From assembly GCA_034520215.1 (NCBI GenBank), contig JAXHNR010000002.1, positions 344,642 through 408,641 on the forward strand: DNA of 64,000 nucleotides. The letters run 5' to 3'. The notes under the pieces are model-generated. The model had not been told where the DNA came from. It saw nothing but the letters and a program-made list of their open reading frames with translations, and searched no databases. The translations under genes were made by a program, and so were the position numbers. The stretch is from Candidatus Krumholzibacteriota bacterium. GTDB taxonomy: Bacteria > Krumholzibacteriota > Krumholzibacteriia > Krumholzibacteriales > WJIX01. Below, piece after piece: positions 5,424 to 21,620 of the stretch (its first letter is position 1; each line of letters starts with the position of its first letter).

Positions 5424-5457
5424 ATTTGGCTGAGAAAATTACAGGGAGGTATATGGA

Positions 5458-8400
5458 ATGAAATATGGTGATCTAATTCAGTTTGAGCCTATCGAGTCCG
5501 TAGTTCAGTTGCGGGATGCTGATGGTGCAGTTGCCGCACGGCAGCTTGTAAGTACCTATGTTATTTCTGATGAAATGGCTGATAAATTTTCCAATATTGT
5601 GATTCCTCAACTTCAGTTTGAAAAACCAATTGACAATAAAGGACTGCTTGTAGTAGGTAATTACGGAGCCGGTAAATCACACCTAATGTCGGTAATTTCC
5701 GCACTTGCCGAGAACCCTGATCTCGCCTCCAGTATAAACGATGCGAAGGTTGCAGCTGCTGCCTCAAGGATTAGTGGAAAATTTAAGGTTGTACGAACCG
5801 AGATAGGGGCTACCACCATGTCTCTGCGTGACATCATTGTAGCCGAGCTCGAAGAACATTTGGGGGAGATGGATATTAATTATAATTTTCCATCTGCAGA
5901 CGATGTAGTTAACAACAAGAGTTCCTTTGAGGAGATGATGGCTGCATTTCACCAGAAGTATCCAGATAACGGTTTGCTCCTGGTGGTTGACGAGCTGCTC
6001 GACTATCTGCGTACACGCAAAGACCAGGAACTCATTCTGGACTTAAATTTTCTCCGTGAAATCGGTGAGGTCTGCAAGGATCTGCGGTTCCGCTTTATAG
6101 CCGGTGTGCAGGAAGCCATATTCGACAGTCCCCGTTTTTCCTTCGTATCCGACAGTATTCGCCGTGTAAAGGATCGTTTCGAACAGATTCTCATCGCCAG
6201 TAAGGATGTTAAGTTTGTAGTAGCAGAACGACTTCTCAAGAAAACTGCGGAGCAGCAAAATAAAATTCAGGAGTATCTCACACCTTATGCAAAATTATAC
6301 GGGCATATGAATGAACGCATGAACGAGTTCGTTCGGTTGTTCCCCGTACATCCTGACTACATCGATACATTTGAACGTGTAACTTCGGTGGAAAAACGTC
6401 AAGTGTTAAAGACCCTGTCTATGGCGATGAAAAAACGTCTAAGCGATGATATTCCGAAAGATAGGCCTGGTCTTATTGCCTACGATACCTATTGGAACAG
6501 GCTATGTGAAAACCCTTCGTTTCGTTCCGTGCCCGACATCAAGGCTGTTATCGACTGCAGCCGGGTGCTGGAGTCTCGTATAGAGCAGGCTTTCACACGC
6601 CCGCCCTACAAGCCCATGGCGATTCGGCTTATCCATGCACTATCTGTGCATCGGCTTACTACTGGCGATATTCATGCTACTCTCGGGGCTACACCCAAGG
6701 AACTGCGGGATGCGCTCTGTCTTTATCAGCCTGAGATTGAGGATTTGGGTGGTGATCCGGCCGATGATCTGCTTTCTCATGTAGAAACAGTTCTGCGGGA
6801 AATTCATAAGACAGTAAGCGGACAGTTTATCTCCGTTAACCCTGCCAACCAGCAATTCTATCTTGATCTTAAGAAAACCGATGACTTCGATGCCCTGATT
6901 GAAAAACGGGCCGAAAGTCTCGATATATCCCAGCTCGATCGCTATTACTATGCAGCCCTGAGAATTGTTATGGAGTGTGCAGATCGGACTTATGTTACCG
7001 GCTACAAAATATGGCAGCACGAACTGGAATGGCTGGAATGTAAAGCATCCCGCCAAGGGTATCTCTTCTTTGGAGCGCCCAACGAGCGTTCTACCGCCGT
7101 TCCACCGCGTGATTTCTATATCTATTTCATCCAGCCCTTTGAAACGCCGAAGTTTAAGGATAAAAAAAAAGCAGATGAAGTATTTCTGCATTTGAAAAAC
7201 CCGGGCGATGAGTTCCGTACCACACTCAGCAATTACGCTGCAGCGCTCGATCTTGCATCCACTTCTTCAGGGCATGCCAAATCTACCTATGAATCTAAAT
7301 CATCGAATTTCGTGCGCGATCTGGTGCAGTGGCTGCAGAAGCATATGACAGACGCATTTGAAGTGACCTATCAGGGACGCAGCAAAACCATCACTGAGTG
7401 GAACAAAGGCAAATCTATACGCGAACTTTCTGGTATCGCCTCACACGAGCGGCTCAACTTCCGTGATTTAATAAACACAGTGGCGGGCGTATGCCTCGCC
7501 CCGAATTTTAAGGAACAGGCGCCTGAGTATCCGCATTTTTCAGTTCTCATTACCAGCGACAACAGGGCACAAGCTGCTCAGGATGCACTCCGTTTCATAG
7601 CGGGTCAAAAAGCCACAAAACAGGGTACGGCTGTTCTTGACGCATTGGAGCTTCTTGATGGTGAACGTCTCGATCCCTATAAATCAAAGTATGTCAAGTA
7701 TATCCTCGGGTTGCTCAAGAAGAAGGGTCGTGGTCAGGTAATCAATCGTTCGGAATTGATCCAGGATGTATTTAGTGTAGAATACCTCGCCCCACAGACC
7801 CTGAGGCTCGAACCGGAGTGGGCTGTCGTAATTCTAGCCGTACTGGTTTATACCGGCGATTTGGTGTTGGTTATCCCGGGCAAAAAGTTTGATGCAACGG
7901 AGCTTCCTAAACTCGCCGGAACCAAAGTGGAGGATCTGGCTCAGTTCAAACACATCAAGCAACCAAAGGATTGGAATTTACCAGCGTTAAAGACATTGTT
8001 CGAACTACTTGATCTTACACCCGGTATGGCCCGGCTGATCTCACAGGGGAAAGGGGAACCAGTACAGCAGCTTCAGAAAGCAATTACGCAAAGGGTAGAG
8101 AAACTGGTTCGTATCAGACAGAATTTGCAGGATGGTATACCGTTCTGGGGAAGCAAGTTGTTTGAAGAAAAGGAGTCACAAAAAATTTTAACCCGGCTGG
8201 ATAAAACGAAGGATTTTCTGGAATCCATGCAGGCTTATTCCTCTCCGGGCAAGCTTAAGAATTTTCGCTACGATACAAAAGAAGTCAAAAACCACCGGGA
8301 TGGAATTAAAACCCTAAAAGAGATCGAATCGCTTCAGGAATTGGTAAAGGACTTGGGGGGCACTGCTTTCTATCTGTCAACAGCTGAAGCGGTCTTACCA

Positions 8401-9186
8401 TCTGATTATGAGTGGACAGACAAGATAAAAACTGCCAGGAAGGATGTTTTAGAAAAAATTATCGATCCGAAAAAGCGCGATGCAACGAATTTTCGCCAGA
8501 ATATGATGCGCAAACTCACCAAACTAAAGAAGGAATATCATAAAATATACCTGACAATGCACACCAAGGCACGGCTGGGGGTGAATTACGATAAACGCAA
8601 AACTCGCCTGACGAAGGACGAACGGCTCAAAGTATTGCAGAAACTATCGACTATTGATCTGATGCCGCGTCAGCATCTGAGCGATTTCCAGAACCGACTT
8701 GCAGGTCTGAAGAGTTGTTTTGCTTTTACAGAGCAGGACCTCGATGTTTCTCCAGTTTGTCCGCACTGCGACTACAGGCCTGGAGAAGAAATACCAGCGG
8801 TACCTGCCGAAAACTTGATCGACGAACTTGATGATGTGCTCGATAAACTTGTTAATGACTGGATTCGAACGCTTCTTAACAACATGGAGGATCCCACTAC
8901 AAAGGAACATTTGGAACTGCTTAAGCCCAAACAAAAGAAATTGGTAAAAGGTTTTATCAAAAGCAGGGAGCTGCCGGAGGATATGGATCAGGTTTTCATT
9001 AATGCGCTAAGGGAAGTACTCTCAGGATTGGTGAAGGTGTCGGTAAAAACAGCTGATATACGAGAAGCGCTCCTGGTAGGAGGTTCTCCCGCCACACTGC
9101 AAGAGATGAAAAAACGGTTTGAGCACTACATCGACGAGCTTTCCAAGGGAAAGGAACCCGGCAAGGTGCGGGTTGTATTGGAGTAG
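5458..9186 (+). CDS. brxC: BREX BrxC/PglY large P-loop ATPase
   Basis: 1242 aa. N-terminal Walker [13 protein letters not shown]. Size and position fit BrxC, with PglZ and a methyltransferase in the same operon. Confidence 0.7.
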
Positions 9187-9197
9187 GGATTTATTAT

Positions 9198-10364
9198 ATG
9201 AAAAAAAAATCAAAGAAATCAATAGAATCTGAAGGTAACCTTTTTAGTCGTGTTGTAACTATTTTGGAGCAGGCGCGAACAAATGTTATTCGCACAGTTA
9301 ATAACGAAATGGTGCTTGCATACTGGCAAATCGGACGAGAGATTGTCCAGTCAGTGCAGAGCGGTGATAAACGTGCTGGATATGGAAAGCAAGTTATTAA
9401 AGAGCTTTCTAAAGAGTTGAATAAAAAATACGGCAAGGGATTCTCTACAACAAATTTATGGTATTTTAGACAGTTCTATCTGGTGTATTCAGATCGGGAA
9501 CCCAGGATTCGCCACAAGGCGTGTGGAGAATTGAATTCTGGAGAAAAACTCCACAAGGCTTGTGGAGTTTCAAATGATTTAAGTATGGTTGTTGAAAAAT
9601 GCGAAGATATCAAAGGATTTTCCCCTCTCTTAAGCTGGTCGCATTATCGTACATTAAGTAAAGTTGAGCAAAAGAATGAACGCCTCTTTTACGAGATTGA
9701 GGCCGAAAAAGAAGGTTGGAGCGTTCCTGCCCTGCAACGCCAAATAGACTCCTTCCTTTTCCCTCGGCTTTTGAAAAGTAGGGATAAAGACGGAGTTATG
9801 GAGTTGGTAGAAAAAGGACAATTAATAAAAACTCCGAGTGACAGCATAAAAGATCCTTATATCCTTGATTTTCTTGGTCTGCCTGATTTTAAGCAAATAC
9901 ACGAATCAAAACTGGAAACTGCGATTATTGACAATCTACAATCATTCCTTCTGGAATTAGGTAAAGGATTTGCATTTGTTGCCCGGCAAAAACGTCTCCA
10001 GTACGAGGATGAATATTTCTATATTGATCTTGTTTTTTATAACTGCATTTTGAAGTGCTATCTTCTAATTGACCTGAAGATAGGTAAGTTGACACATCAG
10101 GATATCGGTCAGATGGACAGCTATATCCGGATGTACGATGATAAATATTTTACAGAGGGTGATAATCCATCAATAGGTCTTATTCTTTGCGCAAAGAAAA
10201 ACGAAACCATCGCCCGCTATTCGGTACTAAAAGACAGCAAACAGCTCTTCGCATCCAAATATATGCTCTGTCTGCCTACAGAGGAAGAGCTGCAGCAGGA
10301 ATTGGAGCGGGAACGGATACTAATTGAAAAGCTTCAATCCGAAGGAAAAGATGATCACGAATGA
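9198..10364 (+). CDS. DUF1016/YhcG-family PD-(D/E)xK nuclease
   Basis: C-terminal LELGKGFAFVARQKRL...YIDLVFYN...LLIDLKIGKL, with the D...D-x-K layout typical of the YhcG family. Inserted between brxC and the methyltransferase. Confidence 0.6.
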   Translation: MKKKSKKSIESEGNLFSRVVTILEQARTNVIRTVNNEMVLAYWQIGREIVQSVQSGDKRAGYGKQVIKELSKELNKKYGKGFSTTNLWYFRQFYLVYSDREPRIRHKACGELNSGEKLHKACGVSNDLSMVVEKCEDIKGFSPLLSWSHYRTLSKVEQKNERLFYEIEAEKEGWSVPALQRQIDSFLFPRLLKSRDKDGVMELVEKGQLIKTPSDSIKDPYILDFLGLPDFKQIHESKLETAIIDNLQSFLLELGKGFAFVARQKRLQYEDEYFYIDLVFYNCILKCYLLIDLKIGKLTHQDIGQMDSYIRMYDDKYFTEGDNPSIGLILCAKKNETIARYSVLKDSKQLFASKYMLCLPTEEELQQELERERILIEKLQSEGKDDHE

Positions 10365-10433
10365 AAAGGTATAAATTATCCACGACTGTTATTTGTGTTT
10401 ATTCGAATCCATTAATGGCCGAAGGGGTTATTT

Positions 10434-13379
10434 GTGATGAGTAGATCAAAAGAAAACAATAAACAGAAACCATTATTTAAGACAAAAATTGTCCCCGGCA
10501 AACCAGGTTCACAGAATCTATTTGAAGAGGAATTTATCCGTGATGAGGGACTCGTGGAATGTCTCGGTATGACGTTTGAAAATGATAAAAAGCGCCGGCA
10601 GCATTTTCTGGAAATATTAAAAGAAAAACTTAAAGACCCTGAATTTCGCAAAATCGAGGGTTTTCCACTCGGAGAGGATGAAGATATTCTCAATCTGTCC
10701 GATCCCCCTTACTACACTGCTTGTCCGAACCCGTGGATCGGTGGTTTTATAAAGCTATGGGAAAGTCAGAAACCAGAGAGGGACAACAAAAAATATCACA
10801 GAGAACCATTTGTCGCTGATGTTAGTGAAGGTAAAAACGATCCAATATACAACGCCCATTCTTATCATACAAAGGTGCCTCACAAAGCGATCATGAGGTA
10901 TATTCTTCACTACACCGCCCCTGGAGACATTGTCTTTGATGGATTTTGCGGTACGGGTATGACGGGTGTCGCGGCGCAGATGTGTGGAAACAAAGATGCG
11001 GTTGAATCTCTGGGTGTTACCAAAAAATCTCCTGAAAAGAAATACAGAGTTGAAAAGGATGGAACAATATCAGAAAAAAAGGTGAACGAAGGGGGGAAAA
11101 CCGTATGGACACCATTTTCCAAAATTGGAGCAAGGAAAGCGGTTCTAAATGACCTTTCCCCAGCGGCAACCTTTATTGCGTATAATTATAACACCCCCGT
11201 TGATGTTGTTGAGTTTGAAAGGGAAGCAAAACGAATCTTAAAGGAAGTAGAAGAAGAATGCGGCTGGATGTATGAGACTGCTCATGAAGATGGACAAAAG
11301 GGCAGGATTAATTACACGGTCTGGTCGGATGTCTTCGTCTGCCCGGAATGTTCCGGGGAAATAATCTTTTCGGAAGCGGCGGTGGATAAAGAGGCCGGGA
11401 AGGTACATAAAGAGTTTCCATGCCCGCACTGCCAGGTTCAACTTACCAAAAGGAAAATGGATAGGGCATGGGTAACAAAGTACGATTCCGCGCTAAACAA
11501 ATCCATACGACAGGCCAAACAGGTTCCGGTACTGATTAACTATTCTCTTCCTGTCCCCGACAGGAAAAGGCCAAAGCGGTTTAAAAAAACACCTGAAGAA
11601 TCTGATCTAGCGCTTATTGAAAGAATAGAGAATAGTGAGATTCCATATTGGTTTCCTGCTGACCGTATGATGGAAGGTGAGGAAACAAGGCGCAACGATA
11701 GATTTGGCATTACCCATGTGCATCATTTTTATACGAAAAGGAATTTGTGGGTGTTGGGGGCGGTGCTGAATATGTGTTCACTTAAAATAAGATTATTATT
11801 TCAATCTCTTTCGCAATTCGTTCAACAAGCTGACAATAATCCTTTGTTATTATTTTTATTCGGAAGTGCTTTACCAAAACTAACTATTATGAATAGGTAC
11901 ATGCCACAACATGGGGGAAGAGCACTTGTTGGCCCCATGGCAAATACACTTTATGTGCCCCCAGTATGTGTTGAGAAGAATGTGATCGATCAATTTCGGT
12001 TTCAATTTAATAAAATCGCCAAAGCATTAAATTCACTTAAGAGCAACTTGGTTTTAACACAAGCTGCGCAACAGATAAATGTGCCTGATAATTCAATTGA
12101 TTATTTGTTTCTTGATCCTCCATTTGGGGCAAATATAATGTACTCAGAGTTAAGCTTTATCAGGGAAGCTTGGTTAAAGGTTTTTACAAATTCTAAACCA
12201 GAAGCAATTGAAAATAAATCGCAAAAGAAAACAATTGATGTGTATAGAATACTGATGGCCGAGTGTTTCAAGGAAACATATAGAATGCTAAAACCAGGAC
12301 ATTGGATGACGGTTGAATTTTCAAACACTAAATCATCTGTGTGGAATAGCATACAACGTGCTCTTTCTGAAGCAGGTTTTATTGTGGCATCTGTTGCCGC
12401 TCTGGACAAAACAAGAGGGGGGCTACATGCTATGATTGGACCTACAGCGGTCAAACAAGATCTCGTAATCTCCGCCTACAAACCCAACGGTGGGTTTGTA
12501 GAACGATTCTTGAAAGAAGCATCAACCGAAGAAGGTGTATGGGATTTTATTCGTACTCATCTCGGCTATCTACCCGTAATAAAGAAACAGGGGAATGAAC
12601 TTGTTCCTGTCCCTGAACGAGATCCGCGCATACTCTTCGATCAGGTTGTTGCTTTCTATGTCAGCAAAGGTTATCGGGTTCCAGTATCTAGCCCGGAGTT
12701 TCAGAAGGGATTAGCTGAGCGTTTTTCTCTTCGCGACGGTATGTACTTCCTGCCTGAGCAGACAGCGGAATACGACAAGAAACGGATGAACGCAAAAGAA
12801 ATTATTCAACTGAACCTCTTTGTATCAGATGAGGCAACCTCTATTCAGTGGCTTAAACAGATACTTAATAAAAAGCCGTTGACCTTCCAAGATATAAATC
12901 CACAGTTTCTGAAAGAAATTTCCGGTTGGGATAAGCATGAAAAAGCCCTTGAGCTTTCTGAAATTCTGGAACAGAACTTTTTGCGTTACGACGGCAAGAG
13001 CAATGTGCCCAGTCAGATTCACAGCTATCTCTCCTCAAATTTTAAAGAGCTGCGCAACCTTGAAAAGGATGATCCTGCGCTTATAGCCAAGGCCAAAGAC
13101 CGCTGGTATGTACCTGATCCTCGGAAGGCTAGTGATCTTGAACAACTCCGAACGAGGGTTTTGATGAGGGAATTTAAAGAATATGTTGAGTACAAGAAGA
13201 AACGAATACGTGTTTTTCGTATGGAAGCTGTCCGCGCTGGCTTTAAGAAAGCATGGCAGGAGCGAGACTACACCACAATAATTGATGTGGCACAAAAGAT
13301 TCCGGACAAGATTATTCAGGAAGATCCCAAGCTCCTTATGTGGTACGATCAGGCTGTAACGAGAACAGGAGAGGAATAA
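10434..13379 (+). CDS. pglX: N6-adenine/N4-cytosine DNA methyltransferase, BREX PglXI-like
   Basis: SDPPYYTACPNPW and LFLDPPFGANIMY (DPPY/F motif IV). VFDGFCGTGMTGVAA is the FxGxG SAM-binding motif. A Cys4 zinc ribbon (CPECSG...CPHCQ) is present. 981 aa. Confidence 0.7.
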   Translation: MMSRSKENNKQKPLFKTKIVPGKPGSQNLFEEEFIRDEGLVECLGMTFENDKKRRQHFLEILKEKLKDPEFRKIEGFPLGEDEDILNLSDPPYYTACPNPWIGGFIKLWESQKPERDNKKYHREPFVADVSEGKNDPIYNAHSYHTKVPHKAIMRYILHYTAPGDIVFDGFCGTGMTGVAAQMCGNKDAVESLGVTKKSPEKKYRVEKDGTISEKKVNEGGKTVWTPFSKIGARKAVLNDLSPAATFIAYNYNTPVDVVEFEREAKRILKEVEEECGWMYETAHEDGQKGRINYTVWSDVFVCPECSGEIIFSEAAVDKEAGKVHKEFPCPHCQVQLTKRKMDRAWVTKYDSALNKSIRQAKQVPVLINYSLPVPDRKRPKRFKKTPEESDLALIERIENSEIPYWFPADRMMEGEETRRNDRFGITHVHHFYTKRNLWVLGAVLNMCSLKIRLLFQSLSQFVQQADNNPLLLFLFGSALPKLTIMNRYMPQHGGRALVGPMANTLYVPPVCVEKNVIDQFRFQFNKIAKALNSLKSNLVLTQAAQQINVPDNSIDYLFLDPPFGANIMYSELSFIREAWLKVFTNSKPEAIENKSQKKTIDVYRILMAECFKETYRMLKPGHWMTVEFSNTKSSVWNSIQRALSEAGFIVASVAALDKTRGGLHAMIGPTAVKQDLVISAYKPNGGFVERFLKEASTEEGVWDFIRTHLGYLPVIKKQGNELVPVPERDPRILFDQVVAFYVSKGYRVPVSSPEFQKGLAERFSLRDGMYFLPEQTAEYDKKRMNAKEIIQLNLFVSDEATSIQWLKQILNKKPLTFQDINPQFLKEISGWDKHEKALELSEILEQNFLRYDGKSNVPSQIHSYLSSNFKELRNLEKDDPALIAKAKDRWYVPDPRKASDLEQLRTRVLMREFKEYVEYKKKRIRVFRMEAVRAGFKKAWQERDYTTIIDVAQKIPDKIIQEDPKLLMWYDQAVTRTGEE

Positions 13380-13381
13380 TT

Positions 13382-14674
13382 ATGGCGAAAATAGAAGGAA
13401 TCAGAATTCAAAATTACGGTGTGTTAAAAGATATAATACTGGGAAAGTTATGGAACTTACAAAATGCCAAACCACTGACACCCATGACTGCGGTTATTGG
13501 AAAAAACGGGGTAGGTAAGAGTTCTTTGTTCGATGCCTTTGGTTTTCTTGCTGATTGCCTGAAATTGGGAGTTGAAGATGCATGTAATGCCAGGGGGCGG
13601 GGCGGCTTTGAGCGTATTTGTTCTCAAGGGAGTAATGGCCCGATCGAGTTTCAGATATACTACAGGCAGCATGGTAATGCCAGACCTATTACATATGAAA
13701 TTGCAATTGACAAAGATAAGGCTGGCCGATCCTACGTAAAAAAGGAACGGCTCAGACAGAGGCGCAAGGGACAGAGCTATGGATGGCCTTTTTCGTTTCT
13801 TGTGTTGAATGAAGGAAAAGGAGTCGTATGGAAAGGCGAAGAACATGGACAGCAGATTGATGAAGGTAAAGTGGATTTTGACTTGTTCGGGTTGATGAAG
13901 AAAATTGGAGCAACACCACAAAAAGAAGAAAGCCGCGAAACAGAGATTATTGAACTACAAGACAAGCGCAAGCTTGGCATTGCAACCCTTGGGGCACTAA
14001 AACAACATCCCAGGATATCGGCATTTCGCCAGTTTATCGAGGGCTGGTATATGAGTTACTTTACTCCGGATGCTGCTCGCAGTCTTCCATTGGCCGGGCC
14101 ACAAAGGCATTTGAATATCCACGGAGATAATCTCGGTAATGTCGTTCAGTTCATGCAGCGTGATCATCCTAAACGTTTTAATAGTATACTCAATCGCATT
14201 GCTGAAAAAATTCCCGGAATTGACAAAATTGATACCGAAGAGAGTCCGGATAAACGGCTGCTTTTGCGTTTTAATGATAAAGGCTTCGATAGTCCGTTCT
14301 ATGCTCAGCAAATGTCTGATGGTACGCTAAAAGTCTTTGCTTACTTTTTGTTATTGGAGGATCCGACACCCCCGCCTTTTATCTGTATTGAAGAGCCTGA
14401 AAACGGGCTGTATCACAAATTGTTGGAGCCTTTGGCCGCTGAATTCCGTACGCATGCAACGGGCAGAAAAAACTCGCCGCAACTCTTTATTACCACGCAT
14501 CAACCATATTTTGTGGATGCACTAACGCCAGAAGAGACATGGATTCTTGAAAAAGGCTCGGACGGTTTTTCGAGGATACGAAGGGCCAGCGAGGATGCAA
14601 CCGTCAAAGCCATGGTAGATGAAGGATTACCGCTTGGTGGCCTCTGGTACAGTGATTATCTGGATGCGAGGTGA
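13382..14674 (+). CDS. AAA_21 / ABC-type (SMC-like) ATPase, defence-associated
   Basis: Start MAKIEGIRIQNYGVLKDI. Walker A GKNGVGKSSLFDA. C-terminal Walker B-like ICIEEPENGLYH. Start reassigned to the ATG at 13382, which follows GGAGAGGA. Confidence 0.65.
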   Translation: MAKIEGIRIQNYGVLKDIILGKLWNLQNAKPLTPMTAVIGKNGVGKSSLFDAFGFLADCLKLGVEDACNARGRGGFERICSQGSNGPIEFQIYYRQHGNARPITYEIAIDKDKAGRSYVKKERLRQRRKGQSYGWPFSFLVLNEGKGVVWKGEEHGQQIDEGKVDFDLFGLMKKIGATPQKEESRETEIIELQDKRKLGIATLGALKQHPRISAFRQFIEGWYMSYFTPDAARSLPLAGPQRHLNIHGDNLGNVVQFMQRDHPKRFNSILNRIAEKIPGIDKIDTEESPDKRLLLRFNDKGFDSPFYAQQMSDGTLKVFAYFLLLEDPTPPPFICIEEPENGLYHKLLEPLAAEFRTHATGRKNSPQLFITTHQPYFVDALTPEETWILEKGSDGFSRIRRASEDATVKAMVDEGLPLGGLWYSDYLDAR

Positions 14675-14678
14675 GCCA

Positions 14679-15341
14679 ATGCACTTTCAAATACATGTTG
14701 AAGATGCGTCTGGGAAAATCGTGTTGGAATCTATTATGGATAAGATTCTGAGCCCACAGGACCTAAATCACACATATAAAATATATTCTTACAAAGGCAT
14801 TGGGCGTATTCCAAATGACCTAAAAGGAACAATAGATCCACAAAAGCGCATTCTTATGGATAGATTGCCAAAGTTACTAAGAGGGTACGGGAAAAGTTTG
14901 CAGCATAGTTCTGTTTCTGTTGTGGTGTTTGTCGTAGATCTCGATTATAGGGATTGTATAGCATTCAAAGAAGAAATGATTGATGTATTAAATGCCTGCA
15001 ATCCAAAGCCAAAAACGCTATTCAGGATTGCGATAGAGGAAATAGAAGCTTGGTTGTTGGGAGATCGTAATGCTATTAAAACTGCTTACCCTCACGCAAA
15101 AAATCAGGTTTTAAACAGTTATCAGCAAGACAGTATATGTGATACATGGGAGAAACTTGCGGATGCCATATATTCTGGGGGATCGAAAAAAGTTAAAAAA
15201 CAGGGATGGCCCCATACAGGACAGTTAAAATGTCGTTGGGCGAAAAAGATTGCTCCTCATATGGATGTAGAAAATAATCAATCAAAAAGTTTCAGGATTT
15301 TCCGTGATGGAATAAGAAAATTGGCAGGAAGTGTGATCTGA
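14679..15341 (+). CDS. DUF4276-like Toprim/OLD-type partner of the AAA_21 ATPase
   Basis: HFQIHVEDASGKIVLESI (conserved acidic residues), VVFVVDLDYRD and the EEIEAWLL motif. Start reassigned to ATG 14679, 4 nt after the ATPase stop, with GAGGTGAG upstream. Confidence 0.5.
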   Translation: MHFQIHVEDASGKIVLESIMDKILSPQDLNHTYKIYSYKGIGRIPNDLKGTIDPQKRILMDRLPKLLRGYGKSLQHSSVSVVVFVVDLDYRDCIAFKEEMIDVLNACNPKPKTLFRIAIEEIEAWLLGDRNAIKTAYPHAKNQVLNSYQQDSICDTWEKLADAIYSGGSKKVKKQGWPHTGQLKCRWAKKIAPHMDVENNQSKSFRIFRDGIRKLAGSVI

Positions 15342-18136
15342 TGAACGGGAACAAATGGCACTACAGTCTCGATCACGACCAAATCTGCAAGGTTATTGAA
15401 ACCCAGAAGCTTTGGGGCAAAACCACCTGCTGTGTCTGGTTTCCGGTTTCGGACTCGGTGGTGCATGTTTCTGCGGCAGGACTTAAACCGATTGAGGACA
15501 TTGTAACATGTACGCCGGAGCATGTTACCTACATTGCAGCTGCAGCCAGGGTAGCAGAAGCGCTTACTCAGAATGTCCTGCTTTCGCCTGTTGAATCTTC
15601 GGTTATTCCTCTCCCCCATCAGATCAAGACACTGTCCCGGGCGATTTCTGGTGATAGGATACGCTATCTCTTGGCAGACGAGGTTGGGCTCGGAAAGACC
15701 ATCGAAGCTGGTTTGATCATGCGAGAGCTTAAATTGCGCGGTTTGGTTACAAGAACTTTAGTTATTTCACCCAAAGGCCTGCTTACGCAATGGATGGCCG
15801 AAATGCAGACTCATTTTGGAGAGGATTTTCGAATTCTTATTCCAGGTGATTTTTCAACCTATAGGCGTATAACCCGTGAAGAAAATATGTGGAAAAGCCA
15901 TGATCAAATTATCTGTTCCATGGATTCTGTAAAACCGATGGACAAACATCGTGGTTGGACGCAGGAGAGGATCACTGAATACAACAGCGAACGTTTCGAA
16001 GATCTGATTGCTGCCGGCTGGGATCTTATTATCGTGGACGAGGCGCACCGTCTTGGTGGAAGCACAGATCAGATCGCCCGCTTCAAACTTGGCAAGGGAT
16101 TGGCCGCGGCATCTCCCTATCTCTTGATGCTCTCCGCTACACCTCATCAGGGAAAGACCGATGCTTTTCACCGTTTGGTTTCCCTTGTCGATTCTGAGGC
16201 CTTTCCGAATGAAGCCAGTGTCACTAGTGAGAGGGTTCAACCTTACGTTATACGCACCGAGAAACGTCAGGCCATAGACGCAAAGGGAAGGCCGCTCTTT
16301 AAGCCCCGGCGTACGGAACTTGCCCCGATCGCATGGGAAAAACGACATCGGGATCAGGAACTTCTTTATGAAGCTGTTACCGAATATGTAAGGCAGGGTT
16401 ACAATCAGGCTAGAAAGGAAAAGCGAAGCTATATTGGTTTTCTTATGATTCTTATGCAACGTCTAGTAGTCTCAAGTACAGCAGCGATCAGCAGCACTCT
16501 TGAACGAAGACTGGAGGTGTTAAAAGCGCCGCAGGAACAGTTAAATCTGTTCCCGGATTATTCAGAAGAGGATTGGGCGGATATGGATGGAGAGGAACAG
16601 ATCGAAACTCTGCTGATGACCCGTTTGAATGCCATGAAAAATGAGAGAGCTGAGGTAAAATTGCTCCTCGATGTCGCAAGACGCTGCGCACAAGTTGGAC
16701 CGGATGCGAAGACTGAGGCATTACTGGACTGGATCTATCGGTTGCAACAGGAAGAAGGCGATCCGGAGCTAAAGATCCTCGTTTTTACCGAATTTGTATC
16801 TACCCAGAAAATGCTCGAACAATTCTTGAAAGATCGCGGGTTTTCAGTGGTTTGTCTGAATGGTTCACTGAACATGAATGACCGCAAAGATGTCCAGGAA
16901 TCTTTCGCGGAGGATGTGCGAGTTTTGGTTTCTACAGATGCGGGCGGCGAAGGCCTAAACCTACAATTCTGTCATGCTGTGATTAACTACGATATTCCAT
17001 GGAACCCGATGCGGCTTGAACAGCGCATTGGACGAGTAGATCGCATTGGTCAGGGGCATGTTGTACGAGCTGTTAACTTTATTTTTGATAGTTCCGTGGA
17101 GCATCGTGTGCAGGAGGTGCTAGAAGAAAAACTGGCTGTTATCCTCGAAGAGTTTGGTATCGATAAAACCGGTGATGTGCTTGATTCAGCACAAGCAGGA
17201 CAGATTTTCGACGATCTTTATGTGGAAGCCATTCTTCATCCGGAAGACGTGGAATCATCAGTTGATACGGTTGTTTCCCGTATCCATGATCAGATTCTGG
17301 AAGCTAAGAAAAGCTCTTCGGTCCTTGGAAAAGCCGAGGATTTAGACCCCGGTGAAGCAAAACGTCTGATGGTTCATCCGCTTCCCGACTGGGTGGAAAG
17401 TATGACGGTTAATTATCTGCATGCAAACGGAGGCAGGGCGGAAAAAAAGCGACGCACGTGGGACCTTGAGTGGCCGGACGGGGAGTTGTTTTCGAACATG
17501 GTTTTTACAAGAAAGGATGCCTTTGATATTCCAACTGCTCACCACTTGACCTTGGAGAATAAAAAAGTTCGCAATTTGGTAATGAAGTTGCCTCGAATGG
17601 TAAGGGGGCAGCCAATACAGTCAGTTAATATTCCGGGGCTTTCCAATGAAATTAAAGGGTTTTGGTCTCTCTGGACAATCACAATTCATGCTGATGACTG
17701 GAAATGGCAGCGGGTATTGGCCATATTTTTGCACGATGACGGCAGAATTCTTAAGCCTACAGCACGCCACATCTGGAATAAATTACTGGCAGTTTCTCCG
17801 GAGATTGGCAGACATCTTAAAAGCGATTCCGCTCATGACGCATTTGATCGAGTAATGGAAGCAGCAGAAAAGGATGGAAAGGCAATTTATGATGGAATCG
17901 TTCAAATGCACCGTAAACGCTTAATTCGTGAACGCAGCAAGGGAACATATGCCTTTAATGCAAGGCGAAAGGCCATGGAACAAATTGGATTGCCGCAAGT
18001 TCGAGACCACAGGTTGGGTAAATTGAATCGTGAAGAGGATGAATGGTGTGAGCAATTGGAACGCAGAGCTAAAGTGATTCCCGAAATGGCAGCTCTTCTT
18101 TTGATATACATGGAGGGAACCAATGCGATCAGGTGA
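15341..18136 (+). CDS. brxH: SNF2-family helicase, BrxHII-like
   Basis: Helicase motif I LLADEVGLGKTIEAG, motif II LIIVDEAHRL, motif III LMLSATPHQGK, and a C-terminal helicase domain (QRIGRVDRIGQ). 931 aa. Confidence 0.7.
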   Translation: MNGNKWHYSLDHDQICKVIETQKLWGKTTCCVWFPVSDSVVHVSAAGLKPIEDIVTCTPEHVTYIAAAARVAEALTQNVLLSPVESSVIPLPHQIKTLSRAISGDRIRYLLADEVGLGKTIEAGLIMRELKLRGLVTRTLVISPKGLLTQWMAEMQTHFGEDFRILIPGDFSTYRRITREENMWKSHDQIICSMDSVKPMDKHRGWTQERITEYNSERFEDLIAAGWDLIIVDEAHRLGGSTDQIARFKLGKGLAAASPYLLMLSATPHQGKTDAFHRLVSLVDSEAFPNEASVTSERVQPYVIRTEKRQAIDAKGRPLFKPRRTELAPIAWEKRHRDQELLYEAVTEYVRQGYNQARKEKRSYIGFLMILMQRLVVSSTAAISSTLERRLEVLKAPQEQLNLFPDYSEEDWADMDGEEQIETLLMTRLNAMKNERAEVKLLLDVARRCAQVGPDAKTEALLDWIYRLQQEEGDPELKILVFTEFVSTQKMLEQFLKDRGFSVVCLNGSLNMNDRKDVQESFAEDVRVLVSTDAGGEGLNLQFCHAVINYDIPWNPMRLEQRIGRVDRIGQGHVVRAVNFIFDSSVEHRVQEVLEEKLAVILEEFGIDKTGDVLDSAQAGQIFDDLYVEAILHPEDVESSVDTVVSRIHDQILEAKKSSSVLGKAEDLDPGEAKRLMVHPLPDWVESMTVNYLHANGGRAEKKRRTWDLEWPDGELFSNMVFTRKDAFDIPTAHHLTLENKKVRNLVMKLPRMVRGQPIQSVNIPGLSNEIKGFWSLWTITIHADDWKWQRVLAIFLHDDGRILKPTARHIWNKLLAVSPEIGRHLKSDSAHDAFDRVMEAAEKDGKAIYDGIVQMHRKRLIRERSKGTYAFNARRKAMEQIGLPQVRDHRLGKLNREEDEWCEQLERRAKVIPEMAALLLIYMEGTNAIR

Positions 18137-18836
18137 CAAATTTATCGAATTATTTAATAAGCTCGAGACAACTCTAAGACAAAAAGTAAACTGGAATAAT
18201 CATAAGTCTTTCTATCAATTAGTAAATGTGGCTGCTAAAAAGTATTCCGTAGTTCATAGAAATCGGGATATTCTGAAAGATTTTGGTAATCTTAGGAACG
18301 CTATTGTTCATGATACTAAGTATCCCAAGAAGATTCTAGCCGATCCGCGGCGTGAGACTTTGGATAGTTTAGAAAATGTATTTGAAGCAATCACCAACCC
18401 TAAAAAAGTTATTCCAAAGTTTCAGAAAGATATCAAAGTATTTTCCCTAGAAGAAAAACTTACTAAGGTTTTAAAATATATGGGCAAAAACGATTTCTCG
18501 CAGGTTGTTGTATATAACAATGAGCATTACCAAACATTGTCTTCTGAGGCTATTGTAGGATGGTTAAGAAGCGCCATCGGTGTTGGAATTGCTGATCTGG
18601 AAGGTTCTAAAGTTGAGAATTCCCTAATATTCGAAGACGAAAAAACATGCGAATATTTGTCTCGAAACGAACCAATTGATTCTGCCTTTGAACTATTTGA
18701 AAAGGCGATTCAAAGAAACATACCACGATTGCAAGCCATCCTCGTGTCAGAGTCGGGTAAGTCTGATCAAAAACCTTTTGGCCTTATTACTCCATGGGAT
18801 CTGCTCAGTATAAATGGAGAAGATACTAATGAATAG
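18123..18836 (+). CDS. hypothetical protein with HEPN-like Rx4H motif and C-terminal CBS-like segment, embedded between helicase and PglZ
   Basis: LRNAIVHD contains the R-x4-H HEPN signature. C-terminal KPFGLITPWDLLS resembles a CBS motif. Overlaps both flanking genes. Confidence 0.3.
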   Translation: MRSGDKFIELFNKLETTLRQKVNWNNHKSFYQLVNVAAKKYSVVHRNRDILKDFGNLRNAIVHDTKYPKKILADPRRETLDSLENVFEAITNPKKVIPKFQKDIKVFSLEEKLTKVLKYMGKNDFSQVVVYNNEHYQTLSSEAIVGWLRSAIGVGIADLEGSKVENSLIFEDEKTCEYLSRNEPIDSAFELFEKAIQRNIPRLQAILVSESGKSDQKPFGLITPWDLLSINGEDTNE

Positions 18837-20841
18837 TTGGCGAGGGCAGATTCTAAAGGAATTTACTCCTCGGGTTGCACGCCTGACGCTGGTTGCCGAC
18901 CCGGATGGGCTTTTACTGGAGGAAGGTATTTTGAAGGGGATTCGCGAACGTGGCTTCGAACTAATCCTTTTCGAGGATCATGTAGCATTTCGCTACGCTT
19001 ACGAATCTAAATTCCGTTCTCGCTGGGATCATGGTGAACACACTGATCTGGTGGTCGTATTGAGATCGCCCTCAAGCGACCTTGATTCTCTTCCCTATGA
19101 TCTTCTGCAGGCAGGGCGAAAACTGTCTTTTAATCTAGGAGAGCTGTTTCCCAATCTAAGTTACCCGGTGATTGCCGCGTTGGACGCGCAAGATCTTGAT
19201 GCTCTTTTTCTGGCTCAGCTACAGTATATGCCTGGTAACATGGGTGATAATGCGACAAAAGAATTTGTGCTGCGTCATGTATTCGAGATTGCCCCCGAAC
19301 TTATAAAACAGCCATCCGATCTTCTGCGGGTTTTGCTGCGCCGTCACTACCGGAGACAGCGGATACCTGCCATGCTTGATCAGCGTTTTATCCAGGTGTT
19401 AAGACAGAATGGTCTATTTAAAGATTGGCAGCTCGACAAAATTGTTTCCGACCGTGAAGTTTTCTTTGCTTTTCTGCAAGAGCGCTGGCCGGCTTTCCTG
19501 GATTGCATGGCTGACCGGGGAAAACAACCAAAGACGGGAAATGAAGGAAAAGGTGATTACGGACTCCAATACTCAGGCCCCCTAGATATTCCCTTCGACC
19601 ATGACGATATTCGGGTTTATATTGACAATTTGTTCATAGAGGGATTACTCCATTCTGTCTATCACAAAAAGGGTGATGAATTGAAGTCAACCTGGGCCGG
19701 AGTTGGCATCCAGACCGATGCAGAAGAAGATCATCAGTATAGACTGGACAGATTGATTGATATGATCCGTAACAATATTCCAACAGAGGATGCCAGGCAT
19801 ACAGATTGGTTCCGTTTCGGTTATAGCTATGCTGAAATTAGTGTACTCGAACATGAGATAAACAGCGGACTGTCGGGTGATGAAAAAGAGCGTATTGCTT
19901 CACTTCGTTTATCAGTTGATGAGGCATTTCGCGAGTGGGTTGAGGATCGGTTTGCAGGTCTACATAATCAGCCCCCCGTGCCACCGGCAATGATTCACCA
20001 CATCCCGAGGGTCCTGGCAAGGGAGATTGGTGACTCAAGTAAAAAGAAGGTCGCATTTCTGCTGGTGGATGGGTTAGCTCTTAATCAGTGGCTTGTCTTA
20101 CGTGATGTGCTCCAGTATCAAAGGAAAAAATTAGAATTCCGAGAAAGCGCTGTTTTCGCCTGGATTCCCACCGTGACATCAGTGTCACGGCAGGCTGCCT
20201 TTGCCGGTAAACCACCGATTTACTTTCCCTCGAGTATACATACCACGAATAAGGAACAATCCCTTTGGACTCAATTCTGGGCGGATCAAGGACTGACAGG
20301 CACTGCTGAAGCATACGCAAGGGGCATTGGGGATGGTGATATCGACAAGGTGCGTGAGATCCTATCGCGCCCGAAGATTCGTGTGGTAGGGCTTGTTATC
20401 GATAAGGTAGACAAAATTATGCACGGCATGGAACTGGGTGCGGCTGGTATGTTGAGCCAGGTTCGTCAGTGGGCTATGCAGGGTTTTATGTCTGATCTTA
20501 TTGACATTCTTCTTTGTCAGGGCTTTCAGGTTTTTTTAAGTTCAGATCATGGTAACATTGAGGCGCAGGGTTGTGGAAGGCCGGCTGAAGGTTCTGTTGC
20601 GGATATAAGGGGCGAGCGAATTCGCGTGTATCCGGATGATCTGTTGCGGGCATCGGTCAGGAAAGATTTTCCAGAAGCTATAGAATGGCCGCCGATTGGC
20701 CTGCCGGAGGACTATCGCGCCCTGCTGGCACCAGACCGAAAGGCATTCATTCGGAAAAACGAAACCACCGTCGGACACGGCGGAATTTCTATCGAAGAAC
20801 TGATAGTTCCTCTGGTTCAGATCTATAGGAGGAATAAATGA
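18814..20841 (+). CDS. pglZ: BREX PglZ alkaline-phosphatase-superfamily protein
   Basis: 675 aa. VAFLLVDGLALNQW and FLSSDHGNIEAQG (metal-binding D/H motifs of the PglZ/alkaline phosphatase fold). Confidence 0.7.
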   Translation: MEKILMNSWRGQILKEFTPRVARLTLVADPDGLLLEEGILKGIRERGFELILFEDHVAFRYAYESKFRSRWDHGEHTDLVVVLRSPSSDLDSLPYDLLQAGRKLSFNLGELFPNLSYPVIAALDAQDLDALFLAQLQYMPGNMGDNATKEFVLRHVFEIAPELIKQPSDLLRVLLRRHYRRQRIPAMLDQRFIQVLRQNGLFKDWQLDKIVSDREVFFAFLQERWPAFLDCMADRGKQPKTGNEGKGDYGLQYSGPLDIPFDHDDIRVYIDNLFIEGLLHSVYHKKGDELKSTWAGVGIQTDAEEDHQYRLDRLIDMIRNNIPTEDARHTDWFRFGYSYAEISVLEHEINSGLSGDEKERIASLRLSVDEAFREWVEDRFAGLHNQPPVPPAMIHHIPRVLAREIGDSSKKKVAFLLVDGLALNQWLVLRDVLQYQRKKLEFRESAVFAWIPTVTSVSRQAAFAGKPPIYFPSSIHTTNKEQSLWTQFWADQGLTGTAEAYARGIGDGDIDKVREILSRPKIRVVGLVIDKVDKIMHGMELGAAGMLSQVRQWAMQGFMSDLIDILLCQGFQVFLSSDHGNIEAQGCGRPAEGSVADIRGERIRVYPDDLLRASVRKDFPEAIEWPPIGLPEDYRALLAPDRKAFIRKNETTVGHGGISIEELIVPLVQIYRRNK

Positions 20842-21620
20842 ACAATCGACTGAAACAAATTGGTGTTGATCGCTTTATTAGGTTAAAATGGCTTGAACGT
20901 ACATCTGATTTGCTGCTAGCCGGTAACTATGAGAATATAATCAAGAATGAACTTGAGCAATTACTAACAATTGATTTCCCTTCTTCGTCGGCGAGTAAAA
21001 GGGGTACAATTTCTAAGACAATCACAATCTTGTTAAAGACATGGGTCCGCGTACCTCGAGATATTTATTCTTTGAGAGACACTGGCCTCGAACTACTTCA
21101 ATCGGCGAAAAAAAATGACCGTTTAGCAATCCACTGGGGAATGATTATGGCTGCCTACCCTTTCTGGGGGGTTGTTGCCGGACAAACCGGGCGCTTGCTT
21201 CGTCTTCAGAAGAATGTAGCTGCAAGCCAAATACAGCGGCGTCTTAGGGAACAGTATGGAGAGCGAGAAACGGTTTCAAGAGCGGCGAGCCGTGTTATTC
21301 AGTCTTTTACCTATTGGCATGTTTTAAGTAACACTAAAAATAGAGGTATCTACAGTCAGGGACGCACATTTTCTATAAATGACCCTAAACTTATCTCCTG
21401 GCTTGTCGAGGTCTCCTTGCACGCACGTTCAAACGGTTCTGCTGTGATAAAGGACCTGCTTGATAGTACAATTTTTTTCCCCTTTCGATTTATACATATG
21501 TCAGCAGAGCAGTTAGTTTCCATATCATCTCGATTGGACATGATACGCCACGGACTGGATGAAAATTTAGTGATGTTGAGAGAAGAAGAACCAAACAAAG
21601 GAAGGAGAAAGAAACAATAA
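20838..21620 (+). CDS. hypothetical protein, possibly BrxA-like terminal gene of the BREX operon. Its 3' end runs into IS-derived sequence
   Basis: Position matches brxA in the type 3 gene order. The last residues (EEEPNKGRRKKQ) resemble the IstB C-terminal tail (EESNKGRRNKK), which points to an IS junction near 21580. Confidence 0.3.
   Translation: MNNRLKQIGVDRFIRLKWLERTSDLLLAGNYENIIKNELEQLLTIDFPSSSASKRGTISKTITILLKTWVRVPRDIYSLRDTGLELLQSAKKNDRLAIHWGMIMAAYPFWGVVAGQTGRLLRLQKNVAASQIQRRLREQYGERETVSRAASRVIQSFTYWHVLSNTKNRGIYSQGRTFSINDPKLISWLVEVSLHARSNGSAVIKDLLDSTIFFPFRFIHMSAEQLVSISSRLDMIRHGLDENLVMLREEEPNKGRRKKQ

Follow-up and report, generated by a model that had tools for sequence, protein, structure and literature searches.

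A HEC-01-type ATPase and Toprim gene pair within a type 3 BREX operon of Candidatus Krumholzibacteriota

Introduction

Modules in which an OLD-type ABC ATPase is linked to a TOPRIM protein have been published from BREX and BREX-related loci, where they were proposed to form a backup effector layer, and OLD-ABC-linked nucleases of all kinds occur in at least 1242 taxa. HEC-01 (Hma-embedded candidate 01) consists of an ABC ATPase together with a TOPRIM protein with a conserved metal site; its ATPase, HEC-01A, is described as an ABC fold with an N-terminal beta-barrel-like element and inserts, and specificity was ascribed to the ABC inserts (Payne et al., bioRxiv 10.1101/2024.01.29.577857). In the only published test of HEC-01, carried out in E. 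coli MG1655 deltaRM, none of the phages used was stopped by the representative examined (Payne et al., bioRxiv 10.1101/2024.01.29.577857). They included T7, a phage that makes Ocr.

ATPase and Toprim domains are combined in several other ways. PARIS (AriA and AriB; class 4 OLD-like) is encoded by two separate genes, the first for an AAA_15/21-type ABC ATPase and the second for a Toprim nuclease. OLD proteins of classes 1-2 (P2 Old, Thermus OLD 6p74, Burkholderia OLD 6nk8 and Gabija GajA) hold the ATPase and the Toprim domain in one polypeptide, and class 2 systems such as Gabija have a UvrD-like helicase partner. MADS carries an AAA_21-type ATPase (Mad3) and a DUF4276-related protein (Mad4, reported as a DUF4276 homologue) in a methylation-based defence operon. 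In the three-gene Menshen system, DUF4276 is the C-terminal module of NsnC and is paired with the ABC ATPase NsnB; this domain, one of the DUF4276/RloB-type effector domains, has been classified among the nuclease domains of the Toprim superfamily and shows the conserved E and DxD. Here we analyze an ATPase and Toprim gene pair found in a type 3 BREX operon.

Results

Two coupled genes in a type 3 BREX operon

The pair was studied in a window of 64,000 nucleotides, the whole stretch of DNA that was analyzed, from the metagenome-assembled genome of an uncultured Candidatus Krumholzibacteriota bacterium. An earlier note had described a two-gene module at 13382-15341, consisting of an ATPase with Walker A and B boxes and a Toprim-like partner 4 nt away, served by its own ribosome binding site and embedded in BREX, and each of these elements was found in place. 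Gene A runs from ATG at 13382 to TGA at 14672-14674 and gene B from ATG at 14679 to TGA at 15339-15341, both on the same strand with 4 nt (14675-14678) between them. Each gene is preceded by a Shine-Dalgarno sequence, AGGAGAGGA at a spacing of 6-10 nt from the start of A and GAGG at 7 nt from the start of B. Longer reading frames, opened mechanically at GTG 13340 (A) and ATG 14619 (B), were rejected given that the homologues start with MAKIEG... and MHFEILVED..., respectively.

The operon around the pair is a complete type 3 BREX system. BrxF, BrxC/PglY, PglXI, BrxHII (SNF2), PglZ and BrxA all gave strong PADLOC matches (Table 1), and the operon spans 4947-21620 with all genes on the same strand and the pair between pglXI and brxHII. 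The stop codon of pglXI (TAA, 13377-13379) leaves a gap of 2 nt to the ATG of A, while the TGA of B overlaps the ATG of brxH by 1 nt (TGATG). DISARM, which combines a methylase with an SNF2 helicase, was ruled out as the surrounding system given that PglZ, BrxC, BrxF and BrxA are all present. The HTH gene heading the operon resembles MAD1.

Promoter-like sites numbered 45 in a scan of positions 4000-22500, vs 34.9 +/- 6.0 in shuffled sequence, and terminator-like sites 17, vs 17.1, both at chance level; from 6040 to 16904 the same scan placed no terminator-like site on the + strand. A promoter-like match of 9/12 at 13253-13282 came from this chance-level scan, and the pair may have a promoter of its own there. 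Judging from the 2-nt gap behind pglXI, the 1-nt overlap with brxH and the common strand, we propose that A and B are co-expressed with BREX and would be translated from the BREX transcript. A search for tRNA genes as a possible mark of an integration site found none.

Table 1. Positions of the A-B pair, its motifs and the surrounding BREX genes in the window
Feature	Position	Strand	Evidence
brxF	4947-5423	+	PADLOC BrxF, 9.2e-72; operon start
brxC	5458-9186	+	PADLOC BrxC, 2008 bits; operon start
pglXI (BREX type 3 methyltransferase)	10434-13379	+	PADLOC PglXI PDLC02541, 1450 bits; Pfam N6_N4_Mtase; directly upstream of A
Shine-Dalgarno of A, AGGAGAGGA	13367-13375	+	Read from sequence; within last pglXI codons
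Gene A, 430-aa OLD-type ABC ATPase (HEC-01A)	13382-14674	+	AAA_21 and HEC-01A profile matches
Walker A / P-loop of A, G40-K-N-G-V-G-K46-S47	13499-13522	+	G40, N42, G43, G45, K46 invariant
Variable insert of A, residues 95-192, candidate trigger-sensing region	13664-13957	+	Column identity
ABC signature of A, S312-D-G-T315	14315-14326	+	Invariant in alignment
Walker B and D-loop region of A, F333-ICIEE338-PENGLYH345	14378-14416	+	E337, E338, P339, E340, N341 invariant
H-loop of A, T371-T-H373	14492-14500	+	Invariant in alignment
Shine-Dalgarno of B, GAGG	14668-14671	+	Read from sequence; abuts A stop TGA 14672-14674
Gene B, 220-aa DUF4276 Toprim nuclease-like protein (HEC-01B)	14679-15341	+	
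Toprim glutamate of B, E8, end of beta1	14700-14702	+	99% conserved; model strand 2-7
Toprim glycine of B, G40, after beta2	14796-14798	+	97% conserved; model strand 32-37
Toprim DxD of B, D87-L-D89, end of beta3	14937-14945	+	Both Asp 99% conserved; model strand 80-87
E121-I-E123 of B, just past beta4	15039-15047	+	E121 99%, E123 100% conserved
K184 of B, C-terminal helical region	15228-15230	+	100% conserved; model helix 177-194
brxH (SNF2 helicase)	15341-18136	+	PADLOC BrxHI/BrxHII PDLC02500, 1519 bits; directly downstream of B
pglZ	18814-20841	+	PADLOC PglZ, 1017 bits; operon end
brxA	20838-21620	+	PADLOC BrxA, 3.2e-95; operon end

Gene A encodes a predicted OLD-type ABC ATPase

Profile searches with the product of A matched Pfam AAA_21 (1.6e-43, 150 bits, cutoff 27), as well as AAA_15 and SMC_N, and the PADLOC model HEC-01A PDLC04182 (1.1e-194, 645 bits), residues 1-429 of A aligning to positions 1-402 of the 406 of the profile. 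Walker A, ABC signature, Walker B and H-loop follow one another in this order, and the Walker A (G40-KNGVGK-S47) and Walker B (F333-ICIEE338) boxes are invariant among homologues, as judged from an alignment of 35 sequences with 59-90% identity. The acidic pair of Walker B is E-E rather than D-E, as it is in Thermus OLD ('IIEEPE'), whose segment 'VIIEEPEMYLHP' aligns to this region of A. Thermus OLD (6p74) was also the best relative of A in a profile search of PDB sequences, in a weak match (E 4e-4); searching PDB with A as a single sequence gave no match. Motifs, HMM matches and this weak PDB match together identify A, at the level of sequence, as an OLD-type ABC ATPase. An AF2 model of A computed from 40 close homologues reached a pLDDT of 46 and was discarded as unusable. 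Across phyla the identity of A is 82-90%, and the variation is concentrated in an insert (residues 95-192) with a mean column identity of 0.55 vs 0.81-0.84 elsewhere in the protein.

Gene B encodes a small Toprim protein

B scored above the gathering threshold of Pfam DUF4276 (PF14103; 1.6e-8, 35.5 bits, cutoff 30.2) over positions 1-190 of the 192 of the profile, and residues 1-214 matched PADLOC HEC-01B PDLC04205 (8.5e-92; profile 1-211 of 213), in agreement with the proposal that the 220-aa partner is Toprim/DUF4276-like. The precomputed label PF14103 was attached to nearly all of 120 B homologues among the matches listed. B had no match in NCBIfam, and its profile retrieved nothing meaningful from PDB sequences. 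The structure model of B (pLDDT 95.5, pTM 0.91) is of the alpha/beta type, with a parallel sheet of four strands, and resembles solved Toprim domains; its nearest structural relatives are all defence nucleases.

Toprim domains are defined by a Glu after beta1, a Gly after beta2 and a DxD after beta3 (PMC6755086). B carries these residues as E8, G40 and D87/D89 at the ends of the corresponding model strands (Table 1), and their conservation was calculated from 71 diverse representatives with 30-64% identity. The signature HVE...VVDLD...EEIEAWLL, from which the Toprim character of B had been suspected, is present throughout as HVE (E8), VVDLD (D87, D89) and EEIEAWLL (E120, E121, E123). We compared B with Burkholderia OLD by the position of residues in secondary-structure elements, not by residue superposition. 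On this basis we infer that E8 is the counterpart of E400; E121/E123, whose position matches that of T506/E508 where the helical domain begins, are probably second-metal ligands, and K184 may correspond to the catalytic K562. Candidate counterparts of E400, D455/D457, T506/E508 and K562 are all conserved in B, and the predicted catalytic set of OLD nucleases appears to be fully conserved in this small DUF4276 protein.

The pair matches HEC-01 and differs from PARIS, OLD, MADS and Menshen

Full-length matches to HEC-01A and HEC-01B, encoded by adjacent and co-oriented genes, place the pair by profile search in PADLOC HEC-01, an already catalogued candidate defence family, so the family itself is not new. 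As in described HEC-01, the ABC ATPase gene precedes the Toprim gene and the two are embedded, on the same strand, in a DNA-modification-based defence operon; unlike there, the host system is type 3 BREX instead of Hma and the organism is an uncultured member of Candidatus Krumholzibacteriota.

The likeness to OLD and PARIS that had been suggested for the ATPase and Toprim pair is sound as a comparison of architecture, given that B is Toprim/DUF4276-like and that its homologues occur in defence loci. With PARIS the pair shares the two-gene arrangement and gene order, and both PARIS and HEC-01-type modules are found embedded in BREX loci. However, B belongs to DUF4276 rather than DUF4435, gave no match to the AriB model and has 220 aa vs ~300 aa in AriB, while the AriA matches of A are only to generic AAA_21/AAA_15-type models; identity with PARIS was therefore rejected. 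Moreover, the Ocr trigger and tRNA cleavage are known for PARIS and not for HEC-01. Compared with OLD classes 1-2, the pair has candidate counterparts of the active-site residues of the Burkholderia protein and an IEEPE Walker B identical to that of the Thermus protein, but is split into two genes, and the helicase partner of class 2 has no equivalent here.

MADS resembles the locus in placing an AAA_21-type ATPase and a DUF4276-related protein in a methylation-based operon, and A matches MAD3 distantly (PADLOC 4.5e-21; NCBIfam NF047739, 84.9 bits). With an equivalog cutoff of 420, this score is much too low; B, for its part, finds no match in NCBIfam and the surrounding system is BREX-3, so that an assignment to Mad3/Mad4 was rejected. 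Menshen likewise pairs DUF4276 with an ABC ATPase, whereas here DUF4276 is a free-standing 220-aa protein of a two-gene cassette. NsnB-type relatives of A occur as separate neighbouring genes in some Hma loci. The MANTIS preprint contained nothing that bears on the A-B pair.

The cassette is widespread and occurs inside and outside defence operons

Close relatives of the pair were found in at least 590 species genomes of many phyla. Linkage of the two genes is obligate: A lay directly upstream of B in 79 of 79 loci in which upstream DNA was present, an 80th locus being cut by the contig end, and the two are separate genes in all related loci, as they are here. The immediate upstream neighbours (n=75, species-representative genomes) included the methylase HmaB in 9 cases, PglXI in 4 and a MAD3-like ATPase in 5, consistent with published surveys and with the expectation that homologues would be found in defence loci. 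About one third of the copies adjoin a defence methylase system (BREX-3, Hma or MADS-like), whereas about two thirds have no modification system as immediate neighbour; many lie beside housekeeping genes, e.g. PheT, AlaRS and aconitase. In the window and in four full BREX-3 loci the pair directly follows the methyltransferase gene. The gap between the methyltransferase gene and A is 2-3 nt in BREX-3 loci and 15-20 nt in Hma loci, and such same-strand, tightly coupled insertion recurs inside three different modification-based defence systems.

Copies were also found on mobile elements that have no BREX: one as cargo of the conjugative plasmid pGLE121P3 of Pseudomonas sp. GLE121, the other in a lambdoid prophage of Rahnella aquatilis HX2, located on PRA1, between the antiterminator and lysis genes. 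This prophage interval is a classic site of accessory genes that benefit the host. With the Rahnella copy as query at the DNA level, no homologue was detected in 5,426 complete E. coli genomes. A phage collection contained essentially none, with one gut contig at 49% identity and one partial match at 25% identity.

Where BREX-3 loci have the cassette in common, A shows 85% identity as against 36-68% for the BREX proteins, with a third-codon identity of 0.54 vs 0.30-0.45, indicating that the cassette has followed a separate history and experiences strong purifying selection. With its occurrence in at least 590 species, its fixed A-B order, its place beside a defence methylase in only about a third of cases and its plasmid and prophage copies, the pair has the appearance of a cassette in its own right and not of a BREX component.

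Discussion

We consider it reasonably probable that the pair is a split OLD-type nuclease, i.e. an ABC ATPase of the OLD family (A) alongside a separate Toprim protein with an OLD-like helical extension (B), which resides in BREX-3 as a self-contained mobile cassette and in which the ATPase acts as a sensor that licenses the nuclease. If the pair works like P2 Old, Gabija and PARIS, the A-B complex would keep the nuclease inactive until the ATPase senses an infection cue, probably via the variable insert (residues ~95-192). ATP binding or hydrolysis would then free B or switch it on, and B would cut nucleic acid, DNA or tRNA, by two-metal Toprim catalysis involving E8, D87/D89, E121/E123 and K184. 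Phage replication would be halted, perhaps at the cell's expense, and the pair would act as a second defence layer behind BREX. Both options put forward in the earlier note, a backup to BREX and an independent system that exploits the BREX promoter, are compatible with the sequence. Against this explanation stand the negative outcome of the sole published test of HEC-01 in E. coli MG1655 deltaRM and the 82-90% identity of A across phyla, an unusually high level in a sensor whose targets, phage proteins, evolve quickly.

A special case of the split-nuclease explanation, with a defined trigger, is a guard of BREX in the style of PARIS or PrrC, in which the ATPase would sense inhibitors of BREX (Ocr-like DNA mimics, SAM hydrolases or others) or the loss of BREX and then unleash the nuclease. 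The location right behind the methyltransferase, in the window and four BREX-3 loci, or behind HmaB in 9 loci, suits a guard; PARIS, also an ABC ATPase with a Toprim protein, is triggered by Ocr, which inhibits BREX as well, and PrrC is kept latent by the host restriction system. That HEC-01 was inactive in a strain devoid of restriction systems would fit a module that depends on a partner or on one particular trigger, without proving it. We nevertheless regard the guard as unlikely, seeing that some two thirds of homologous cassettes lack a modification system next door, that the plasmid and prophage copies live without BREX, that Ocr-making T7 was not stopped and that B is not an AriB homologue at the sequence level. 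Quite unlikely, in our estimate, is a tighter integration, in which the pair, not autonomous here, would serve BREX-3 (and likewise Hma and MADS) as a nuclease arm that reads the methylation state set by PglXI. The model for it is mad3/mad4: deletion of either gene reduces MADS defence, mad5 can be deleted only when mad2 or mad3 is deleted as well, Mad4 is a reported DUF4276 homologue, A retains its distant MAD3 match, and the place right behind the methyltransferase gene is constant. However, the MAD3 score of A falls far short of the cutoff and B matches nothing in NCBIfam, most BREX-3 and Hma systems work without the pair, which is not a listed core gene and which PADLOC treats as embedded, and most homologues stand alone. 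The cassette being far more conserved than the nearby BREX genes also argues against co-evolution with a particular partner.

On a related and very unlikely proposal, HEC-01 pairs would be portable nuclease plug-ins for methylation systems that have no obvious DNA cutter (BREX-3, Hma and MADS), and not independent abortive-infection devices. The pair would always stand right behind the methyltransferase gene, become licensed once the host system recognises unmodified DNA, and supply the cleavage; an equally long shot is its corollary that the stand-alone plasmid and prophage copies are cassettes in transit. If true, the proposal would go some way to explaining how phage DNA is stopped by some BREX variants and would account for HEC-01 alone giving no defence in restriction-free E. 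coli. A role outside defence, either as an addiction or stabilisation module of mobile DNA or as a nucleic-acid processing or repair factor for which defence operons are merely insertion hot spots, would be in line with the negative defence test, with a conservation of A across phyla that is atypical for immune sensors, with the many copies beside housekeeping genes and with the Pfam description of AAA_21 as a 'putative AbiEii toxin' type domain. It is highly improbable in view of the recurrent coupled insertion in three different modification-based systems, the defence nucleases that make up all closest structural relatives of B and the host-benefit site occupied in the prophage; furthermore, no conserved antitoxin-like third gene was found beside the pair.

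That an OLD-type ABC ATPase and a Toprim protein may serve as a backup layer of BREX is already published, and the current understanding is unchanged by this locus. The pair illustrates how BREX operons gather extra nuclease modules, and it provides a clean type 3 BREX example, from a poorly studied phylum, of HEC-01, which is a functionally unproven candidate family. The close homologues in cultured bacteria, carried by the conjugative plasmid and the lambdoid prophage, offer native hosts for revisiting the negative E. coli result. A is extremely conserved save for its one hypervariable insert, which is an obvious candidate for the trigger-sensing surface; within it, residues 161-180 have a column identity of 0.30, with indels.

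An ATPase and a Toprim protein as a probable split OLD-type nuclease

Matching the two proteins to PADLOC over their full lengths, we found that protein A, the ATPase, is HEC-01A (1.1e-194) and that protein B, its partner, is HEC-01B (8.5e-92). Every sequence feature required of HEC-01 was present and the pair is a member of this family; other defence models (the AriA models, MAD3, AbiLi, GajA, PtuA) scored far below HEC-01. The earlier note had placed the ATPase in AAA_21 and its partner in DUF4276; Pfam agreed on both (AAA_21, 1.6e-43; DUF4276, 35.5 bits against a cutoff of 30.2, whole domain), and all the motifs quoted there were found in A and B. Protein A carries, in order, Walker A (GKNGVGKS), the ABC signature (SDGT), Walker B (ICIEE followed by PENGLYH) and the H-loop (TTH), all invariant among homologues. 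The best match of its profile to PDB sequences was Thermus OLD (E 4e-4), the alignment spanning the P-loop and a shared IIEEPE Walker B; the predicted structure of A (pLDDT 46) was set aside and the assignment rests on sequence. Mean column identity was 0.81-0.84 in the ATPase core, 0.55 over residues 95-192 and 0.30 over residues 161-180, where indels occur. In one gammaproteobacterial homologue (L040, ~8635-9993) a tandem GLTGPI peptide repeat of four copies aligns to residues 161-180, indicating that the hypervariable insert tolerates large changes.

An alignment of 71 diverse representatives of B (30-64% identity) was the basis of a structure model with pLDDT 95.5 and pTM 0.91. Its structural relatives were the C-terminal nuclease region of Burkholderia class 2 OLD (6nk8_B, 153 residues; match value 10.5), the uncharacterised Pyrococcus PH0156 (9.8), Thermus OLD (8.0), Gabija GajA (7.7), PARIS AriB (7.3) and the Toprim-bearing retron Ec67 protein (6.7). 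E8, G40 and D87-x-D89, at the ends of model strands 1, 2 and 3, are the three Toprim motifs as defined in the OLD structural paper (PMC6755086), and these four residues are 97-99% conserved among the representatives. Conservation is also high at E121 (99%) and E123 (100%), directly after strand 4, and at K184 (100%), which lies in the helical C-terminal portion. In Burkholderia OLD, T506/E508 form the second-metal site and K562 is the catalytic lysine (PMC6755086); matched by position in the model, E121/E123 may correspond to the former and K184 to the latter. B carries a conserved candidate set of two-metal nuclease residues.

The suggested ATPase plus Toprim architecture, of the OLD and PARIS kind, is therefore supported: A and B are an OLD-type nuclease split over two polypeptides. 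OLD proteins, in contrast, are single polypeptides; the pair also lacks the AriB/DUF4435 of PARIS and falls below the MAD3 and MAD4 cutoffs of MADS. Payne et al. (bioRxiv 10.1101/2024.01.29.577857) gave HEC-01 its name and its entry in PADLOC, describing an ABC ATPase paired with a TOPRIM protein whose metal site is conserved; the Menshen study put DUF4276 in the Toprim superfamily and linked it to Mad4, and DUF4276 partners also appear in the AAA_15/21 defence ATPase tree of the PARIS study. A 2026 BREX survey described OLD-type ABC ATPases that are linked to TOPRIM proteins and lie within BREX or BREX-related loci (at least 1242 taxa, all OLD-ABC-linked nucleases pooled) and proposed a backup-effector role. 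Both the family and this kind of context are already described, and the pair is a further member of a candidate family.

The pair is packed within a type 3 BREX operon

The strand that carries the pair also encodes a type 3 BREX system, complete according to PADLOC profiles.

Features of the pair, the BREX island and its flanks
Feature	Position	Strand	Remark
Radical SAM protein	803-2119		flank
ORF, 87 aa	3005-3268	-	HTH
Excisionase-family HTH protein, 89 aa	4651-4920	+	directly 5' of brxF
TTGACA-17-TAAAGT	4651-4679		promoter-like
brxF	4947-5423	+	core
brxC (DUF6079)	5458-9186	+	core
DUF1016/YhcG PD-(D/E)xK nuclease, candidate PDC-S02	9198-10364	+	embedded extra, 388 aa
pglXI	10434-13379	+	core
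Pair A+B	13382-15341	+	embedded extra
Shine-Dalgarno of A, AGGAGAGGA	13367-13375	+	read from sequence
Gene A	ATG 13382 to TGA 14674	+	430 aa
Shine-Dalgarno of B, GAGG	14668-14671	+	read from sequence
Gene B	ATG 14679 to TGA 15341	+	220 aa
TGATG	15339-15343	+	stop of B overlapping next ATG
brxH, SNF2 helicase	15341-18136	+	core
Protein without family assignment, 237 aa	18123-18836	+	embedded extra
pglZ	18814-20841	+	core
brxA	20838-21620	+	core
Carbamoyltransferase	21942-23654		flank
SAM-dependent methyltransferase	23658-24833		flank

The two adjacent open reading frames lie exactly where they had been noted, and the window sequence confirmed both their 4-nt spacing and the claimed ribosome-binding site, a Shine-Dalgarno sequence preceding each gene. 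The longest mechanical ORFs start further upstream (GTG 13340 and ATG 14619); homologues begin at MAKIEG and MHFEILVED, which rules these starts out and identifies the tabulated ones as real. Only 2 nt separate the upstream stop from the start of A, and B overlaps the downstream gene; given this tight spacing at both ends, the pair is packed in the operon without space for a terminator, and it is co-translated with the BREX genes. A simple promoter/terminator scan, which performed at chance level, placed no terminator-like site on the + strand from 6040 to 16904, and a weak internal promoter may still be present.

The pair is conserved as a unit in varied contexts

A and B are each found in many lineages and are conserved to an unusual degree. 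The best 120 clusters were 82-90% identical for A and 68-74% for B, with relatives in Thermodesulfobacteriota, Pseudomonadota, Nitrospirota, Omnitrophota and others; with each species represented by a single genome, at least 590 carriers were counted. A lay directly upstream of B in 79 of the 80 fetched loci, the remaining one ending at a contig edge; the linkage is conserved and obligate.

The cassette occurs both embedded and alone. In four type 3 BREX loci (L004, L006, L011, L019) PglXI was directly upstream at gaps of 2-3 nt, and on a short contig (L070) only a BrxH-like fragment was present, directly downstream of B. Hma systems were found at 12 loci, with the HmaB methylase immediately upstream of the pair in nine (gaps 15-20 nt); a large MAD3-like protein was the upstream neighbour in five, other ABC ATPase modules lay downstream in about eight, and many copies adjoined housekeeping genes, e.g. 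tRNA synthetases and aconitase. Plasmids rarely carry the pair (10 records), deposited phage genomes almost never, and a DNA-level search of complete E. coli genomes found no copy. On the conjugative plasmid pGLE121P3 of Antarctic Pseudomonas sp. GLE121 (L082, 9001-10960; A 77.7% identical) it is cargo, flanked by T4SS genes and the MobF relaxase, with a PLD-family protein as neighbour; in Rahnella aquatilis HX2, plasmid PRA1 (L083, 9001-10943; A 72%, B 47% identical), it occupies the interval from antiterminator gene to lysis genes of a lambdoid prophage. Both bacteria are cultured and usable as native hosts.

Comparing BREX-3 loci that carry the cassette with the window, we found A 85% and B ~70% identical, versus 36-68% for BrxC, PglXI, BrxH, PglZ and BrxA; identity at third codon positions was 0.54 for A versus 0.30-0.45 for the BREX genes. 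These figures indicate strong purifying selection on the cassette. Its history is partly separate from, and more recent than, that of the host operon.

Proposed function and alternatives

By analogy, the pair may function like an OLD or PARIS system. As proposed from P2 Old, Gabija and PARIS, A would restrain B and detect an infection cue, probably via its variable insert, and nucleotide binding or hydrolysis would then release or activate B; B would cut up DNA or RNA and block phage growth, a second layer behind BREX. Such an autonomous sensor-effector pair is, on this analogy, the reading we consider rather probable. A guard triggered specifically by anti-BREX proteins would be a special case of it, and an unlikely one.

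What weakens every defence reading most is that the sole published test of HEC-01 was negative: a representative did not protect E. coli MG1655 deltaRM from the BASEL subset or from classic coliphages, T7 among them. A nuclease arm integrated into a methylation system, on the model of mad3/mad4, which MADS requires, we regard as improbable. We likewise consider it improbable that methylation-based systems license the pair as a portable nuclease plug-in. A role outside defence, in addiction or housekeeping, is the least probable of these readings. 

Other genes of the island and its flanks

GC content is 41-48% across the island (5000-21600) and 29-33% in both flanks, a contrast indicating that the island was acquired horizontally into a low-GC genome. 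An identical operon copy is present on a public 24-kb contig, and a Candidatus Krumholzibacteriota MAG has, on a 1.03-Mb contig, an annotated protein identical to A. The nuclease gene between brxC and pglXI (DUF1016_N and YhcG_C; PADLOC PDC-S02, 4e-141) is a second non-core insert. The 237-aa gene, overlapping both brxH and pglZ, is a third; its product matched none of the PADLOC, Pfam or NCBIfam families, the sole hit being a sub-threshold CBS match (5e-5), and the gene is missing from the related BREX-3 loci examined. In two BREX-3 loci (L004, 10774-12531; L011, 9198-10958) a further embedded gene of ~585 aa separates the pair from the BREX gene that comes next, and the representative of its cluster matches pAgo-associated SIR2/PNTD-type models; given this extra gene, the pglXI-brxH junction appears to be a preferred insertion site for defence genes.

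The HTH protein preceding brxF is MADS MAD1-like (68.7 bits, cutoff 80) and is probably the operon regulator; the promoter-like sequence at its start came from a promoter scan performing at chance level. The flanking radical SAM, carbamoyltransferase and methyltransferase genes are unrelated to the pair. Near the left edge, the 87-aa ORF, whose HTH resembles the IS66 TnpA N-terminus or IS21 transposase (2.6e-12, far under cutoff), is probably a mobile-element remnant.
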